This document shows, one piece after another, positions 4,798 through 52,915 of a stretch of 64,000 nt of DNA. Source of the DNA: Eledone cirrhosa (Eukaryota); assembly GCA_964016885.1 (NCBI GenBank), contig OZ024764.1, forward strand, positions 17,546,001-17,610,000, written 5' to 3'. The position numbers were made by a program, and so were the translations under genes. Below the pieces are notes generated by a model. It did no database searches. It saw only the letters and a list, made by a program, of their open reading frames with translations, and was not told the origin of the DNA. Within the stretch, counting starts at the first letter, position 1; each line of letters starts with the position of its first letter.

Positions 4798-4995
4798 TAT
4801 ACATACATATACACACATATATTCATGGGTTCCCGGTGTAAATCGGGTGATGACCGCGGTTAAAAAAAGGTACTCAATACGTTGGTGAATGTATTTTATA
4901 TATTAATGACTTCTACAGGACTAGAACTGTTTCATTCAAAAGAAATCATACACACACACATATATAATGATGATGATATATATACATACACACAC

Positions 4996-5362: not shown

Positions 5363-5592
5363 TTATATATTTTAGTCTTCAAATTTATTATTATTACTAT
5401 ATATATATATATGGCATCTACAGGACTAGAACTGTTTCATTCGGAGGAAATCATTGATTGAACCCTGGATAAACTAGATATATATATATATATATATATT
5501 AGATAGATAGATAAATATATATTATATATAATATATATTAAAAATATACAAGGTATATATATATTTTATATATTTTCTAAGACAAAACTTAC

Positions 5593-20223: not shown

Positions 20224-20491
20224 CTGTGGAAGTAGGAAGAGAGAGAGAGAGAGAGAGACATAATACATGTGTGAGTATAAGTTATTCCAGGTTGAATCAG
20301 AGGTAACCACAGTAAGTAAGGTACTCAATACATAGCAGAGTATAAAAGTTTTAATATAGAAGAGCTTCTTCGTATGCAAGCCTCTGCGGCTCGCTCTGAG
20401 CACCCTCATTTTTTCACATACGAAGAAGCTCTTCTATATATATATATATATATATTGTTTTGTTTTTTTTAAGCTTCATATCATGTCTCCC

Positions 20492-20562
20492 TATTTTATC
20501 TGACGAGAACGCAAATATCGTCCCATGATAATATTTGTTTTTGAAATGCGCATAATAAAATA
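20492..20562 (+). ncRNA. Minimal type-I hammerhead ribozyme (Penelope-like element/retrozyme type)
   Basis: Stem I TATTTTAT/ATAAAATA (8 bp), core CTGACGA, 12-bp stem II with one mismatch, GAAA, palindromic stem III ATGCGCAT, AUA cleavage triplet (cut after 20554). Confidence 0.8.
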
Positions 20563-21458
20563 CATGGAACTCTTTTAACCATCTTTTCATTTTATATTAT
20601 ATATACTCCAGTCCTATAAACTGTTGAGTGCTACTTATCCGATATTTGCATTGCTTTATTGTGCTACAATAAAACTCACCTCCTACACACATATATATCA
20701 AAATTATGCGTACAAACTAATTAAGGAGGAGAGATAGATTAGTTGTGAGAATTATATGCCAGTATGCTCAGAATTTGGTATTGTTTTCTCTAACATTTAA
20801 TTTCTACACATATATATATATATATATATGTAATATAGAAGTATATATAACAGTATATAGACGTATATTTAACAAGTAATATAGATATATATAACATGTA
20901 ATAATGAATTTCAATACTGTAAAGCTAATGACAATACATTGTTAAAGAAAAAAGTACTTTTTTAATTCCGCGAAAGCAGAATGGTATCTCATACCATAGG
21001 ATAAATAAATATCAACATCTCATAGATTCGTTATTATGTGAGGTAAAGCCTTTACTGTGAAAATACAGTAGTATCATCATCATCATTTTACGTCCGCTTT
21101 TCCCTGCTTGCAAGGGTGAGACGGGAACTGATTCTGGCTTGATTTCTACAGCTGGATGCCCTTCCTAACACCAACCTCATTTACAGTGAGTGCTGGGTGC
21201 TTTTTTGCCGTGGCACCTCCACAACCACTTTCACAGTGGAATGATAGGGACCCCAGTCCCTATCATCACATTTCTACAGCTGAGTAAACTGGAGCAATGT
21301 GAAATAAAGTGTATTGCTCAAGGAAACAACACATCACCCGGTCTGAGAATTGAACTCACAACCTTTCGATTGCAAGGCCAATGCTCTAACCACTAAGCCA
21401 TGTGCCTCTAGTATATATAGAGTAATGTAAATGTTATGTGAGGTAAAGCCATTGTTAC

Positions 21459-21489
<31 letters not shown>

Positions 21490-21592
21490 AGAGCGTGTGT
21501 AACATTAGTCATAGAGGCATGCGTGATCATTTAGTTGCGTGTGAAAATAAGAGAGGATGGTCATGTTTGTAATGTTGACACATACGACATAC

Positions 21593-21683: not shown

Positions 21684-21789
21684 CTGCAAAGATAATAATA
21701 ATAAACCTAGTGTATTTATTTGTATAATACCTTTGATCACAAGCCTACTGGATCAGGACCGACCTGGGGCTGAACAAAACAAAAAGATA

Positions 21790-23410
21790 GGACACATTAG
21801 ATGATGTAGTCCTAGGTACACTGTGTCTGTATAAGACAGGACACATTAGATGATGTAGTCCTAGGTACACTGAGTCTGTATATAAGACAGGACACATTAG
21901 ATAATGTAGTCCTAGGTACACTGTGTCTGTATATAAGACAGGACACATTAGATAGTGTAGTCCTAGGTAGATTGTGTCTGTATATAAGACAGGACACATT
22001 AGATAGTGTAGTCCTAGGTAGACTGTGTCTGTATATAAGACAGGACACATTAGATAGTGTAGTCCTAGGTAGACTGTGTCTGTATATAAGACAGGACACA
22101 TTAGATAATGTAGTCCTAGGTACACTGTGTCTGTATATAAGACAGGACACATTAGATAATGTAGTCCTAGATAGACTGTGTCTGTATATAAGACAGGACA
22201 CATTAGATAATGTAGTCCTAGATACACTGTCTCTGTATATAAGACAGGACACATTAGATAGTGTAGTCCTAGGTAGACTGTGTCTGTATATAAGACAGGA
22301 CACATTAGATAATGTAGTCCTAGGTACACTGTGTCTGTATATAAGACAGGACACATTAGATATTGTAGTCCTAGATACACTGTGTCTGTATATAAGACAG
22401 GACACATTAGATAATGTAGTCCTAGGTACACTGTGTCTGTATATAAGACAGGACACATTAGATAATGTAGTCCTAGATACACTGTGTCTGTATATAAGAC
22501 AGAACACATTAGATAATGTAGTCCTAGATAGACTGTGTCTGTATATAAGACAGGACACATTAGATAATGTAGTCCTAGATACACTGTGTCTGTATATAAG
22601 ACAGGACACATTAGATAATGTAGTCCTAGGTACACTGTGTCTGTATATAAGACAGGACACATTAGATAATGTAGTCCTAGATACACTGTGTCTGTATATA
22701 AGACAGGACACATTAGATAGTGTAGTCCTAGGTAGACTGTGTCTGTATATAAGACAGGACACATTAGATATTGTAGTCCTAGATACACTGTGTCTGTATA
22801 TAAGACAGAACACATTAGATAATGTAGTCCTAGATACACTGTGTCTGTATATAAGACAGGACACATTAGATATTGTAGTCCTAGATACACTGTGTCTGTA
22901 TATAAGACAGGACACATTAGATAATGTAGTCCTAGATACACTGTGTCTGTATATAAGACAGGACACATTAGATAGTGTAGTCCTAGGTAGACTGTGTCTG
23001 TATATAAGACAGGACACATTAGATAATGTAGTCTTAGATACACTGTGTCTGTATATAAGACAGAACACATTAGATAATGTAGTCCTAGATAGACTGTGTC
23101 TGTATATAAGACAGGACACATTAGATAATGTAGTCCTAGATACACTGTGTCTGTATATAAGACAGGACACATTAGATAGTGTAGTCCTAGATACACTGTG
23201 TCTGTATATAAGACAGGACACATTAGATAGTGTAGTCCTAGGTAGACTGTGTCTGTATATAAGACAGGACACATTAGATAATGTAGTCCTAGATACACTG
23301 TCTCTGTATATAAGACAGGACACATTAGATAGTGTAGTCCTAGATAGACTGTGTCTGTATATAAGACAGGACACATTAGATAATGTAGTCCTAGGTAGAC
23401 TGTCTGAATA
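21790..23410 (+). repeat. 51-bp satellite array 1 (~31 units)
   Basis: Unit aggacacattagataatgtagtcctagatacactgtgtctgtatataagac. Confidence 0.97.
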
Positions 23411-23521
23411 AAAGACAGGATGGTCACAGCTGGAACATCTTTGATCATAGATCTACTAGATCAGGACTGACCTGGGGCTAGACAACAATAACAGGGGATT
23501 TACAAAAAAAGGGATACTCAC

Positions 23522-26000: not shown

Positions 26001-28046
26001 CCCTTTAGTGTTTACATTACTCTATATATACTATTGTATTGTCACAGTAAAGGCTTTACCTCACATAATATCTCACATAACATTTACATTACTCTATATA
26101 TACTATTGTATTGTCACAGTAAAGGCTTTATCTCACATAATATCTCATAACATTTACATTACTCTATATATACTATTGTATTTTCACAGTAAAGGCTTTA
26201 CCTCACATAATATCTCACATAACATTTACATTACTCTATATATACTATTGTATTGTCACAGTAAAGGCTTTATCTCACATAATATCTCACATAACATTTA
26301 CATTACTCTATATATACTATTGTATTTTCACAGTAAAGGCTTTATCTCACATAATATCTCACATAACATTTACATTACTCTATATATACTATTGTATTGT
26401 CACAGTAAAGGCTTTACCTCACATAATATCTCACATAACATTTACATTACTCTATATATACTATTGTATTTTCACAGGAAAGGCTTTATCTCATAATTAT
26501 CTCACATAACATTTACATTACTCTATATATACTATTGTATTTTCACAGTAAAGGCTTTACCTCACATAATATCTCACATAACATTTACATTACTCTATAT
26601 ATACTATTGTATTGTCACAGTAAAGGCTTTACCTCACATAATATCTCACATAACATTTACATTACTCTATATATACTATTGTATTGTCACAGTAAAGGCT
26701 TTATCTCATAATATCTCACATAACATTTACATTACTCTATATATACTATTGTATTGTCACAGTAAAGGCTTTACCTCACATAATATCTCACATAACATTT
26801 ACATTACTCTATATATACTATTGTATTGTCACAGTAAAGGCTTTATCTCATAATATCTCACATAACATTTACATTACTCTATATATACTATTGTATTTTC
26901 ACAGTAAAGGCTTTATCTCATAATATCTCACATAACATTTACATTACTCTATATATACTATTGTATTTTCACAGTAAAGGCTTTACCTCACATAACATTT
27001 ACATTATTCTATATATACTATTGTATTTTCACAGTAAAGGCTTTACCTCACATAATATCTCACATAACATTTACATTACTCTATATATACTATTGTATTG
27101 TCACAGTAAAGGCTTTACCTCACATAATATCTCACATAACATTTACATTACTCTATATATACTATTGTATTGTCACAGTAAAGGCTTTACCTCACATAAT
27201 ATCTCATAACATTTACATTACTCTATATATACTATTGTATTGTCACAGTAAAGGCTTTACCTCACATAACATTTACATTACTCTATATATACTATTGTAT
27301 TGTCACAGTAAAGGCTTTACCTCACATAATATCTCATAACATTTACATTACTCTATATATACTATTGTATTTTCACAGTAAAGGCTTTACCTCACATAAT
27401 ATCTCACATAACATTTACATTACTCTATATATACTATTGTATTTTCACAGTAAAGGCTTTACCTCACATAATATCTCACATAACATTTACATTACTCTAT
27501 ATATACTATTGTATTGTCACAGTAAAGGCTTTACCTCACATAATATCTCATAACATTTACATTACTCTATATATACTATTGTATTTTCACAGTAAAGGCT
27601 TTACCTCACATAATATCTCACATAACATTTACATTACTCTATATATACTATTGTATTGTCACAGTAAAGGCTTTACCTCACATAATATCTCACATAACAT
27701 TTACATTACTCTATATATACTATTGTATTTTCACAGTAAAGGCTTTACCTCACATAATATCTCATAACATTTACATTACTCTATATATACTATTGTATTT
27801 TCACAGTAAAGGCTTTACCTCACATAATATCTCACACAACATTTACATTACTCTATATATACTATTGTATTGTCACAGTAAAGGCTTTATCTCATAATTA
27901 TCTCACATAATATCGAATCTATGAGATTTTGATATTTATTTTGAGAACAATACCTTAATGTTGGATGAGCAGCCAGTTATAGCCAGTTTGAACAGAAAGA
28001 GATGAGAGAATTCTGGCTGTTTCTGGCCGGTTTAAATGCTAAAGCG
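26001..28046 (-). mobile_element. piggyBac-like (TTAA) MITE with an internal ~70-72-bp satellite expansion (~26010-27910)
   Basis: ttaa|ccctttag ... ctaaagcg|ttaa termini; unexpanded copy next door at 28175-28356. Confidence 0.8.
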
Positions 28047-28174
28047 TTAATGTTTTGTCTCATCTCTTACTCCACTGGACAGCGTCTGGCCTATGTCAGA
28101 TGCCATGGCCAGCAGTAACAAAGGACATTTTGAATTAAAGAGTTCTAGTCCTGGAGAAGCCATTTCTATATTAA

Positions 28175-28356
28175 CCCTTTAGCACTTAAACCGGACGTAT
28201 GCAGCCAGAATTCTCTCTTTCTGTTCAAACCAGCCACTCACACCGATGGTAAGGTATTTTTCTCAAAATAAAAAACATCAAAATCTCAGATTATGTGAGA
28301 TAGAGTTTACTGTGAAAATACAATAGTAAATATAGGCTAATGTAAATGCAAAAGGG
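28175..28356 (+). mobile_element. piggyBac-like (TTAA) MITE, unexpanded copy
   Basis: ttaa|ccctttagc ... gcaaaaggg|tttaa; further copies/fragments at ~8425, 11150, 11455, 12230, 21010, 47730-48540. Confidence 0.75.
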
Positions 28357-30224: not shown

Positions 30225-33030
30225 TAAAAGACACATTAGAAAATGTAGTCCTAGATACACTGTGTCTGTATATAAGACAGGACACATTAGATAATGTAGT
30301 CCTAGATACACTGTGTCTGTATATAAGACATGACACATTAGATAATGTAGTCCTAGATAGACTATGTCTGTATATAAGACAGGACACATTAGATAATGTA
30401 GTCCTAGATACACTGTGTCTGTATATAAGACAGGACACATTAGATAATGTAGTCCTAGATACACTGTGTCTGTATATAAGACATGACACATTAGATAATG
30501 TAGTCCTAGATAGACTATGTCTGTATATAAGACAGGACACATTAGATAATGTAGTCCTAGATACACTGTGTCTGTATATAAGACAGGACACATTAGATAA
30601 TGTAGTCCTAGGTACACTGTGTCTGTATATAAGACAGGACACATTAGATAATGTAGTCCTAGGTACACTGTGTCTGTATATAAGACAGGACACATTAGAT
30701 AATGTAGTCCTAGATACACTGTGTCTGTATATAAGACAGGACACATTAGATAATGTAGTCCTAGATACACTGTGTCTGTAGATAAGACAGGACACATTAG
30801 ATAATGTAGTCCTAGATACACTGTGTCTGTATATAAGACAGGACACATTAGATAATGTAGTCCTAGGTACACTGTGTCTGTATATAAGACAGGACACATT
30901 AGATAATGTAGTCCTAGATACACTGTGTCTGTATATAAGACAGGACACATTAGATAATGTAGTCCTAGATACACTGTGTCTGTAGATAAGACAGGACACA
31001 TTAGATAATGTAGTCCTAGATACACTGTGTCTGTATATAAGACAGGACACATTAGATAATGTAGTCCTAGGTACACTGTGTCTGTATATAAGACAGGACA
31101 CATTAGATAATGTAGTCCTAGATACACTGTGTCTGTATATAAGACAGGACACATTAGATAATGTAGTCCTAGATACACTGTGTCTGTAGATAAGACAGGA
31201 CACATTAGATAATGTAGTCCTAGATACACTGTGTCTGTATATAAGACAGGACACATTAGATAATGTAGTCCTAGATACACTGTGTCTGTATATAAGACAG
31301 GACACATTAGATAATGTAGTCCTAGATACACTGTGTCTGTATATAAGACAGGACACATTAGATAATGTAGTCCTAGGTAGACTGTGTCTGTATATAAGAC
31401 AGGACACATTAGATAATGTAGTCCTAGGTAGACTGTGTCTGTATATAAGACAGGACACATTAGATAATGTAGTCCTAGATAGACTGTGTCTGTATATAAG
31501 ACAGGACACATTAGATAATGTAGTCCTAGGTAGACTGTGTCTGTATATAAGACAGGACACATTAGATAATGTAGTCCTAGGTAGACTGTGTCTGTATATA
31601 AGACAGGACACATTAGATAATGTAGTCCTAGATAGACTGTGTCTGTATATAAGACAGGACACTTTAGATAATGTAGTCCTAGGTAGACTGTGTCTGTATA
31701 TAAGACAGGACACATTAGATAATGTAGTCCTAGGTAGACTGTGTCTGTATATAAGACAGGACACATTAGATAATGTAGTCCTAGGTAGACTGTGTCTGTA
31801 TATAAGACAGGACACATTAGATAATGTAGTCCTAGATACACTGTGTCTGTATATAAGACAGGACACATTAGATAATGTAGTCCTAGGTAGACTGTGTCTG
31901 TATATAAGATAGGACACATTAGATAATGTAGTCCTAGGTAGACTGTGTCTGTATATAAGACAGGACACATTAGATAATGTAGTCCTAGGTAGACTGTGTC
32001 TGTATATAAGACAGGACACATTAGATAATGTAGTCCTAGATACACTGTCTGTATATAAGACAGGACACATTAGATAGTGTAGTCCTAGATACACTGTGTC
32101 TGTATATAAGACAGGACACATTAGATAATGTAGTCCTAGGTAGACTGTGTCTGTAGATAAGACAGGACACATTAGATAATGTAGTCCTAGATACACTGTG
32201 TCTGTATATAAGACAGGACACATTAGATAATGTAGTCCTAGATACACTGTGTCTGTATATAAGACAGGACACATTAGATAATGTAGTCCTAGGTACACTG
32301 TGTCTGTAGATAAGACAGGACACATTAGATAATGTAGTCCTAGGTAGACTGTGTCTGTATATAAGACAGGACACATTAGATAATGTAGTCCTAGATACAC
32401 TGTGTCTGTAGATAAGACAGGACACATTAGATAATGTAGTCCTAGGTACACTGTGTCTGTATATAAGACAGGACACATTAGATAATGTAGTCCTAGATAC
32501 ACTGTGTCTGTAGATAAGACAGGACACATTAGATAATGTAGTCCTAGGTACACTGTGTCTGTATATAAGACAGGACACATTAGATAATGTAGTCCTAGAT
32601 ACACTGTGTCTGTATATATGACAGGACACATTAGATAGTGTAGTCCTAGGTACACTGTGTCTGTATATAAGACAAGACACATTAGATAATGTAGTCCTAG
32701 GTACACTGTGTCTGTATATAAGACAGGACACATTAGATAATGTAGTCCTAGGTAGACTGTGTCTGTATATAAGACAGGACACATTAGATAATGTAGTCCT
32801 AGGTACACTGTGTCTGTATATAAGACAAGACACATTAGATAATGTAGTCCTAGGTACACTGTGTCTGTATATAAGACAGGACACATTAGATAATGTAGTC
32901 CTAGGTAGACTGTGTCTGTATATAAGACAGGACACATTAGATAATGTAGTCCTAGGTACACCGTGTCTGTATATAAGACAGGACACATAATATAGTCCTA
33001 GATACACTGTGTCTGTATATAAGACAGGAT
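30225..33030 (+). repeat. 51-bp satellite array 2 (~55 units)
   Basis: Same unit as 21790-23410. Confidence 0.97.
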
Positions 33031-34949: not shown

Positions 34950-35076
34950 TATTAAAATAACAGATTAAAGTTTAAGCAAAGAATCGCTGCTTTCACCCTT
35001 AACGGGATCTTCTGAAGATCCCGTTAAGGGTGAAAGCAGCGATTCTTTGCTTAAACTTTAATCTGTTATTTTAATA
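34950..35076. repeat. Perfect palindrome, 63-bp arms, 1-nt centre (35013)
   Basis: Arm-by-arm reverse complement read directly. Confidence 0.95.
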
Positions 35077-38281: not shown

Positions 38282-38532
38282 TATATATATATATATATAT
38301 AAAAGTTTATATACAGGACTAGTACTGTTTCATTCGTACTAAATCATCAGGAATGTCTGATGTATATATATATATCTGTATATATATATACACACACACA
38401 TATACACACAAGCACATACATATATCTATATATAGACAAAACATTTATGTTTCAAAACAAGTGTTTAATAGCGAAACGAAAGAGAAAGAGATTTCACCAG
38501 AATCTTAAGCAAGATTTTCTACACGATCCCAG

Positions 38533-39677: not shown

Positions 39678-39740
39678 ATCGTGATCTCACTAGAATGAAA
39701 CGGTTCTAGTCCGGTAGAAGACATTTATATATATATATAT

Positions 39741-39794
<54 letters not shown>

Positions 39795-46850: not shown

Positions 46851-46887
<37 letters not shown>

Positions 46888-47104
46888 AATATAGGACTAG
46901 AACTGTTTCATTTGAATGAAACAGTTCTAGTACTGTAAAAGCCATTTTTATATTAAATTTTGTATATACTTTACTAATGTATTGAGTTCTTTATTTACTG
47001 TGGTTACCCTTGATTGAAGCCAGTGCTCACATATATATATATATATATATATATATGTTAGAGATATTGGTGAATTCAGAATGTATATTACAAGTAAACA
47101 ATAT

Positions 47105-49258: not shown

Positions 49259-49459
49259 GTAAGTATCATTGCCGTGGCTCTAATCCTGGGTGAAGGTCAC
49301 TTAGGATTGTCTCCCCTGTCTGATCTTCACTGTGTGTCCACAAGGTATGTTAGGATGGAGAGAGGAAAGGAATGTAGTGTTCTGGGTGTTGTTTAGCCCC
49401 AGGTCAGTCCTGATCCTGTAGACCTATAATATGATCAAAGATGTTCCAGTTGTGACGAT

Positions 49460-51575
49460 CCTGTCTTATATACAGACACAGTGTACCTAGGACTACATTA
49501 TCTAATGTGCCCTGTCTTATATACAGACACAGTGTATCTAGGACTACATTATCTAATGTGTCCTGTCTTATATACAGACACAGTCCACCTAGGACTACAT
49601 TATCTAATGTGTCCTGTCTTATATACAGACACAGTGTACCTAGGACTACATTATCTAATGTGTCCTGTCTTATATACAGACACAGTGTATCTAGGACTAC
49701 ATTATCTAATGTGTCCTGTCTTATATACAGACACAGTGTACCTAGGACTACATTATCTAATGTGCCCTGTCTTATATACAGACACAGTGTATCTAGGACT
49801 ACATTATCTAATGTGTCCTGTCTTATATACAGACACAGTGTACCTAGGACTACATTATCTAATGTGCCCTGTCTTATATACAGACACAGTGTATCTAGGA
49901 CTACATTATCTAATGTGTCCTGTCTTATATACAGACACAGTGTACCTAGGACTACATTATCTAATGTGCCCTGTCTTATATACAGACACAGTGTATCTAG
50001 GACTACATTATCTAATGTGTCCTGTCTTATATACAGACACAGTGTACCTAGGACTACATTATCTAATGTGTCCTGTCTTATATACAGACACAGTGTATCT
50101 AGGACTACATTATCTAATGTGTCCTGTCTTATATACAGACACAGTATATCTAGGACTACATTATCTAATGTGTTCTGTCTTATATACAGACACAGTGTAT
50201 CTAGGACTACACTATCTAATGTGTCCTGTCTTATATACAGACACAGTGTACCTAGGACTACATTATCTAATGTGTCCTGTCTTATATACAGACACAGTGT
50301 ATCTAGGACTACATTATCTAATGTGCCCTGTCTTATATACAGACACAGTGTACCTAGGACTACATTATCTAATGTGTCCTGTCTTATATACAGACACAGT
50401 GTATCTAGGACTACATTATCTAATGTGTCCTGTCTTATATACAGACACAGTGTACCTAGGACTACATTATCTAATGTGTCCTGTCTTATATACAGACACA
50501 GTCTATCTAGGACTACATTATCTAATGTGTCCTGTCTTATATACAGACACAGTCTACCTAGGACTACATTATCTAATGTGTCCTGTCTTATATACAGACA
50601 CAGTGTACCTAGGACTACATTATCTAATGTGTCCTGTCTTATATACAGACACAGTGTACCTAGGACTACATTATCTAATGTGTCCTGTCTTATATACAGA
50701 CACAGTGTACCTAGGACTACACTATCTAATGTGTCCTGTCTTATATACAGACACAGTGTATCTAGGACTACATTATCTAATGTGTCCTGTCTTATATACA
50801 GACACAGTGTATCTAGGACTACAATATCTAATGTGTCCTGTCTTATATACAGACACAGTGTATCTAGGACTACATTATCTAATGTGTCCTGTCTTATATA
50901 TAGACACAGTGTACCTAGGACTACATTATCTAATGTGTCCTGTCTTATATACAGACACAGTGTACCTAGGACTACATTATCTAATGTGTCCTGTCTTATA
51001 TACAGACACAGTCTACCTAGGACTACATTATCTAATGTGTCCTGAGACAGTATATCTAGGACTACATTATCTAATGTGTCCTGTCTTATATACAGACACA
51101 GTGTACCTAGGACTACATTATCTAATGTGTCCTGTCTTATATACAGACACAGTGTACCTAGGACTACACTATCTAATGTGTCCTGTCTTATATACAGACA
51201 CAGTGTATCTAGGACTACATTATCTAATGTGTCCTGTCTTATATACAGACACAGTGTATCTAGGACTACAATATCTAATGTGTCCTGTCTTATATACAGA
51301 CACAGTGTATCTAGGACTACATTATCTAATGTGTCCTGTCTTATATATAGACACAGTGTACCTAGGACTACATTATCTAATGTGTCCTGTCTTATATACA
51401 GACACAGTGTACCTAGGACTACATTATCTAATGTGTCCTGTCTTATATACAGACACAGTCTACCTAGGACTACATTATCTAATGTGTCCTGAGACAGTAT
51501 ATCTAGGACTACATTATCTAATGTGTCCTGTCTTATATACAGACACAGTGTATCTAGGACTACATTATCTAATGG
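49460..51575 (-). repeat. 51-bp satellite array 3 (~41 units), opposite strand to arrays 1 and 2
   Basis: Reverse complement of the same unit; internal 447-bp duplication marked by a deleted unit at ~51043 and ~51490. Confidence 0.97.
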
Positions 51576-52390: not shown

Positions 52391-52915
52391 ATATATATAT
52401 ATGAACAAGAGAGAAGGTTGTGTAGTTGCTAGATAAGGTATACTTAAATATAAGAAGAAAGCATGAACGGGAGAAAGTTTTCCTTCATCAGTTGTCTGCT
52501 GGGGGTCTCGGATATTTCTACCCATTAAAAACAAATATATATATATATATATATATATACATACATACATATCTATATATATATATATATAAATTAAATA
52601 AAAATGGTGTAGGCATTACAATACAACAGGAGAAAACACAATAGTACCACTGATGATGTCACACATGTGTGATGAAAGTACTTTGATAGACTATATATAT
52701 ATATATATATCTGTATTTTTAACCATTGGTCAATCAATGATAAACATTGATTGCCAGATAAATTAACTATGGAGATATAAAAGATACAGAAGCGAAAACC
52801 AACCCCAACCAAACAGTGAGTGTGTTCTGTTATTATTTCTGGCAATATTATAACAATATGACCCTCCCCAAGTATATCAATATATATATATTGTGTGTAT
52901 TATCTCTGTTTTCAG

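Follow-up and report, generated by a model that had tools for sequence, protein, structure and literature searches.

A type I hammerhead motif on a high-copy repeat, likely from the end of a Penelope-like element, inside an eIF4H intron of Eledone cirrhosa

Analysis of a 64-kb stretch of Eledone cirrhosa DNA (here called the window) revealed that positions 20492 to 20562 of its plus strand are, judged by their sequence, a genuine hammerhead motif of type I with a dimer-type stem III. The motif lies on a high-copy repeat abutting (TA)n, and with good confidence we take this repeat to be a likely 5′-truncated 3′ end (pseudo-LTR) of a Penelope-like element (PLE) or a non-autonomous derivative of one, whose lone antisense copy in the eIF4H intron is likely inert.

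Architecture of the motif and its host intron

The motif combines a long stem II with a short palindromic stem III. Three helices surround the core, and helix I is open-ended, which is the type I topology. The 5′ strand of stem I (20492–20499) pairs with 20555–20562 at 8 of 8 positions in Watson-Crick fashion, with pair probabilities of 0.65–0.85. Beyond a 6-nt bulge the stem extends through catg/catg (20482–20485/20563–20566). Both the perfect 8-bp stem and its extension had been noticed in a sequence-only reading of this DNA and were found where it placed them. The core box C3–A9 (CUGACGA) occupies 20500–20506, followed by stem-loop II (20507–20542) and by a segment (20543–20554) with G12–A14, the self-complementary stem III and the cleavage-site residue A17. 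The GAA of the core is at 20543–20545. In stem III, A20546 pairs with U20553 and U20547 with A20552 around a GCGC loop, so helix III of the monomer has 2 bp only, and the 8-mer 20546–20553 is self-complementary. The invariant type I core (C3, U4, G5, A6, G8 and A9; G12, A13 and A14; A15.1-U16.1; H17) is present as read from the letters, and the predicted cut site is 3′ of A20554. An AATAAA (20554–20559) overlaps this site; it lies within the stem I complement and is common to the repeat family. The core residues, the palindrome, the cut residue and the AATAAA had all been described by the sequence-only reading and could be read at the same positions.

Two of its descriptions held in part. Stem II had been given as 12 bp closed by G·U; the G·U closing was borne out, but the strands (20507–20518/20531–20542) pair at 11 of 12 positions, in the order G·U, A-U, A-U, a C × U mismatch (C20510 × U20539) and eight pairs, with two of the pairs being G·U. 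The motif had also been called intact, which is right for the core but not for distal stem II, where a pair is lost through an A at 20530 in place of the family G. An unpaired base between A9 and 10.1 may be drawn or omitted, at −2.5 kcal/mol with the extra base and −4.9 kcal/mol without it; position 20507 varies between G and A and is compatible with either register.

We then considered how far such a motif might be expected by chance. A loose core pattern gave six matches where 2.62 were expected, and six was reached in 10 of 100 shuffles, which is not significant. The full descriptor (core, stem II of at least 3 bp and stem I of at least 5 Watson-Crick bp) gave one match in the window and 0 in 400 dinucleotide shuffles, a comparison in which the descriptor was written after the motif had been seen and local AT-richness is lost by shuffling the window as a whole. 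No match to the Rfam hammerhead models was found at gathering score across the 64 kb, and none of the 11 Rfam matches at E ≤ 10 within 20300–20750 was a hammerhead. The Infernal comparison with hammerhead models proposed by the sequence-only reading did not recover the motif. Rfam is not known to model the PLE hammerhead variants. Overall folding stability was rejected as evidence, the whole-region z-score being 0.18, that is, no greater than that of shuffles.

That z-score, the missing Rfam match, the frequency of the loose pattern and the nearly equal folding of the minus strand (−9.7 vs −9.1) would all suit an AT-rich repeat hairpin that looks like a hammerhead by chance and has no ribozyme ancestry. 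The scarcity of the full descriptor among shuffles and the exact palindrome of stem III argue against such an origin, as does variation among copies that hits free position 7 and keeps plus-strand pairing (see below), and we regard it as very improbable.

The probability of the catalytic monomer fold was about 2e-5 by nearest-neighbour folding, and the predicted dimer reached −38.9 kcal/mol, compared with 2 × −12.8 kcal/mol, with an intermolecular stem III of 8 bp. These values are indicative only, since the folding model ignores tertiary contacts and since stem II is slipped in the predicted dimer, where core bases take part in pairing. On this modelling, the monomer is predicted hardly to adopt the catalytic fold and the dimer to form the 8-bp intermolecular stem III.

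The host gene is on the minus strand. The best structural match of a minus-strand exon was the eIF4H RRM (2dng, E 6e-10), and the best of 22 protein matches with exon 2 as query came from an eIF4H-like Argonauta hians protein, at 89% over 36 residues; the protein search with the last exon as query gave no match. The Argonauta protein maps to seven collinear minus-strand exons separated by six introns, all six of them GT-AG. The motif sits between exons 5 and 6 on the opposite strand, in intron 5 (20224–21592, −), which confirms the antisense, intron 5 position first proposed for it. As a result, the eIF4H pre-mRNA carries only the reverse complement of the motif. We also agree that the possible substrates of the motif would be limited to antisense RNA and RNA derived from the element.

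The junction of exons 5 and 6 (21593/20223, −) is one base out of frame in the assembly and leads to an early stop, possibly through an assembly indel close to where exon 6 begins. An extra exon inside intron 5 was considered and rejected, since the frame stays shifted with either candidate and the mapped Argonauta protein has no gap to fill. An exon-like signal was observed on the eIF4H strand at 20716–20680 (−), with a pyrimidine tract and AG, 37 nt and a strong donor. This donor comes from the element tail, and inclusion would shift the eIF4H frame.

The repeat family and variation among its copies

Contigs from 4 of 19 listed public runs (X1, X4, X5 and X7) were aligned to 20260–20800 at 80% likeness. 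The four runs carry three organism labels in all, and the small runs are possibly traces; the runs left aside include 12 holders with small shares. X1 gave 7371 contigs, a count shared with the neighbouring repeat at 20276–20370, while X4, X5 and X7 gave 402, 62 and 41, respectively, and all three cover the element too. The summed depth in X1 was 1.9e5–1.9e6 over 20469–20696 and 212–851 over 20716–20800, where depth is not to be equated with copy number. The stretch 20472–20698 (+) plainly belongs to a high-copy interspersed repeat, of which it is one hammerhead-bearing copy. A blastn search of the 64-kb window found no second copy of 20457–20700.

On its 5′ side the copy is preceded by a (TA)n tract (20435–20455), the likely insertion target, and by a U-rich tract ending in AG (20456–20473, +) just upstream of stem I. 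By analogy with Penelope of D. virilis as described in PMC4209133, the latter might serve as a 3′ splice site for an intron within the element. The contig alignment skips 20426–20471, which hides the 5′ boundary of the repeat and the upstream part of longer copies. At the other side, family copies run into (TA)n after either 20605 or 20698, two 3′ ends that differ by 93 nt. Each was seen in 42 contigs of X1 and in one contig of X5, and the 20698 end was also seen in one contig of X7. Among the joints listed, a set that leaves aside 20426–20471 and 241 further loose ends, none linked either of these 3′ ends to the 5′ end.

Compared with the X1 majority, the eIF4H-intron copy has 9 differences in 227 positions, three in the 71-nt motif and six in the tail. 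Of the three, one is at free position 7 and the other two are in distal stem II, where an A-U pair has become G·U and a C-G pair is lost. The family-majority stem II continues for four further pairs (20519–20522/20527–20530), one of which is broken in the eIF4H-intron copy; the lost pair (A20530 for G) is kept in 94–100% of family depth. At free core position 7, the eIF4H-intron copy has C and 45–97% of family depth in the four runs has U. The 10.1-11.1 closing pair is G·U in this copy and A-U in 43–81% of family depth. The element tail also holds a hairpin (20654–20672, +), which would gain a ninth pair from the majority base of the family at 20663.

Plus-strand pairing survives at 8 of 8 variant sites in stems I and II, whereas 21 of 38 possible transitions would preserve it (P=0.004). 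With three sites found mainly in X4 removed, pairing is kept in 5 of 5 (P=0.04), and with the 16-position family stem II in 7 of 7 (P 0.012). All these stem changes are one-sided exchanges between A-U and G·U, with no two-sided compensatory change seen, and the sites are not independent events. They could reflect editing as well as selection. Under either, the pairing-preserving variation points to a folded plus-strand RNA in the history of the family. At the 12 invariant core positions and within the 8-nt palindrome, no variant of 5% or more was found. Core invariance alone was rejected as evidence, being not significant at the background rate (P0=0.28), and contig placement needs near-matching words and so favours conserved cores.

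Pattern scans for relatives gave no match in viral contigs or prokaryote genomes. The single match in the metagenome scan was GC-rich, coding-like DNA without the stems and was rejected as chance.

Several other elements were observed in the window. A second hammerhead-like family has at least six short copies, most of them adjoining (TA)n, at 4880–4960 (−), 5395–5480 (−), 28115–28185 (+), 38295–38375 (−), 39680–39755 (+) and 46885–46960. These copies preserve the cut-site triplet and the 3′ half of the core well, and a complete 5′ box is seen only at 38350. At 46.9 kb the copy takes the form of an inverted pair, head to head. The tail of this family also occurs beside the studied element, at 20276–20361, joined to a long inverted repeat (20354–20439) with arms of about 24 nt, whose middle (20374–20430) is relatively much deeper in X4 than in X1. 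A third motif (52650–52688, +) has a textbook PLE layout, with core box, an extra base after A9, a 6-bp helix II, GAAA, a 4-nt palindrome and an imperfect helix I, and is followed by (TA)n. A perfect head-to-head inverted repeat at 34980–35050 is centred on a core-like box with a 3-bp helix II. There are also three long arrays of a 51-bp minisatellite (21784–23420, 30230–33029 and 49459–51574), two of them inside eIF4H introns, and a 72-bp array (26011–27910) built from a dispersed repeat that occurs many times in the window.

Probable origin and relation to known hammerheads

Hammerhead variants with a small palindromic helix III have been reported in the pseudo-LTRs of metazoan PLEs (Cervera and De la Pena 2014, PMC4209133). 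According to that report, they have a long helix II, a U-rich 5′ and an AU-rich 3′ flank, and occur as thousands of mostly single, dispersed copies per genome that come from truncated PLEs. The present motif shares with them the type I topology, the CUGANGA/GAAA core, the long helix II, the palindromic helix III that needs a dimer, both kinds of flank and the many single dispersed copies. It differs in having a helix I of 8 bp rather than 2–5, a helix II of 11–15 pairs rather than 5–8, and a helix II closed by G·U or A-U instead of G10.1-C11.1, the consensus at more than 80%. G10.1-C11.1 is called conserved in PMC2837043 and PMC544870, neither of which, as far as their text was available, states a frequency for G·U. 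As two Lottia motifs in Fig. S3 of PMC4209133 close helix II with G·U and A-U closings are found there also, the pair is typical of PLE hammerheads without being strictly required. The same figure has motifs from Aedes, Drosophila willistoni and Hydra with a palindromic loop of 4 nt or shorter. No cephalopod was noted among the species in Table S1 or the text of Fig. S3.

PLEs are described in PMC8557442 as 5′-truncated, with a tail at one end only and hammerheads near their 3′ ends, and (TA)n is the preferred target of some PLE types. The repeat resembles them in its many dispersed short copies and (TA)n ends, although the 93-nt gap between its two 3′ ends exceeds the 30–40 bp tail of that source and so weighs against PLE parentage. 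In favour of it, the same window holds a second hammerhead-like family with (TA)n flanks, in at least six copies. Also against it is the lack of RT or GIY-YIG coding sequence linked to the family: no PLE ORF was linked in the 64 kb, and neither domain was matched in Pfam by any of 150 ORFs scanned (of 157 filtered window ORFs of at least 55 aa), where only a DDE fragment was above the cut-off. The lack of an ORF near the eIF4H-intron copy is expected of a truncated element end. Two traits of the PLE consensus also fit the motif only loosely and count against this parentage: the G10.1-C11.1 closing, and the extra nucleotide after A9, which here requires a register less stable by 2.4 kcal/mol. 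Taken by analogy, the motif would work like a PLE-end hammerhead, and membership in a PLE family is likely. The sequence-only reading had not noticed the high-copy (TA)n-associated repeat; since repeats of this kind have been described since 2014 (PMC4209133), most of the surprise of the motif is gone.

A second candidate parent is the non-LTR retrozyme of animals (PMC7229834; bioRxiv 10.64898/2026.07.22.740005), a short non-coding unit that occurs in head-to-tail tandem arrays and would spread through circular RNA, of which the present copy would be a dispersed monomer. The repeat is likewise a short non-coding one with a type I hammerhead; its length of about 230 bp lies within the 150–450 bp of PMC7229834, no RT or GIY-YIG ORF was found among the 150 scanned, and in Xenopus 42–44% of dispersed monomers are intronic, according to the 2026 preprint. 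This reading differs from that of a PLE end mainly in the existence of tandem arrays, however, and no array of the hammerhead unit is present in the 64-kb window. No circular RNA of the unit was seen, and none of the listed public runs is on record as RNA, which carries no weight in either direction. In addition, the ends at 20698 and 20605 run into (TA)n, with no 3′-to-5′ joint among those listed, and the retrozyme hammerheads described are mostly of canonical 6-bp/4-bp form with a 4-bp helix II, in contrast to the 11–15 pairs found here. We therefore hold a retrozyme monomer to be unlikely; the preprint itself derives retrozymes from PLE ends.

On the preferred reading, the motif would be a type I hammerhead on a short repeat from a PLE end. 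On a tandem precursor RNA of the parent element, two hammerheads would pair by means of their palindromic stem III and cleave that RNA, a presumed role in processing. For the lone copy in the eIF4H intron to act, an antisense transcript would be required as well as a trans partner. As no partner is present in 64 kb, we read this copy as a passenger that is likely inert at the locus. It might instead have been recruited by the host and would then cut an antisense transcript through eIF4H, tuning eIF4H expression, as the undamaged core and stem I and the AATAAA over the cut site could suggest. But this AATAAA belongs to the stem I complement shared by the family, the 9 differences from the X1 majority, 3 of them in the motif, are like those of an ordinary young copy, and the monomer, with no partner copy nearby, is predicted not to fold actively. 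A single minimal PLE hammerhead showed no cleavage in PMC4209133, where multimers cut weakly. Recruitment is thus highly improbable. Absence of cleavage in vitro would not exclude membership in the family, because the members published so far show poor or no cleavage in such assays.

Hammerheads inside introns of protein-coding genes are also known in amniotes, where HH9 and HH10 are single-copy, conserved and fast as monomers. The present motif shares the intronic location, but it is a young repeat copy, lies antisense and has no Rfam model match. We found no report of an octopus hammerhead in a literature search whose scope lay outside Repbase, Dfam and subscription journals, and repeat databases may hold the family.

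Possible editing and significance

In X4, A>G changes at 20515, 20555 and 20562 made up 10%, 5% and 6% of depth (1, 20 and 16 contigs, respectively), compared with 0.3%, 0.03% and 0.003% in X1 and 0 in X5 and X7. A20555 is the base directly 3′ of the predicted cut. No T>C change in the hammerhead stems was among the variants listed. X4 comprises 88 million letters with a longest record of 24 kb, which would fit a transcriptome, its run type being unrecorded. Editing directed at repeats has been reported for coleoids (PMC9068888), and our literature search found no paper on ADAR editing of a retroelement hammerhead. It is conceivable, though doubtful, that transcripts of the family carry the ribozyme strand and that their stems are A-to-I edited by the very active cephalopod ADARs, which would tune or disable self-cleavage of the retroelement. 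X4 is another sample than X1, however, and sites of other kinds differ between them too (20633 A>T, 67% vs 12%; 20511 G>A, 33% vs 9%), so that a different mix of subfamilies explains the A>G excess as well.

The intronic copy says nothing about eIF4H and likely does nothing for that gene. The repeat extends the known class of retroelement hammerheads, already counted in thousands per genome, by an octopod family whose helices I and II are unusually long. Its importance would rise if the family turned out to be fast as a dimer, since the metazoan PLE hammerheads published so far are slow. If the stems were indeed edited by ADAR, RNA editing in cephalopods would be linked to the control of a retroelement ribozyme.
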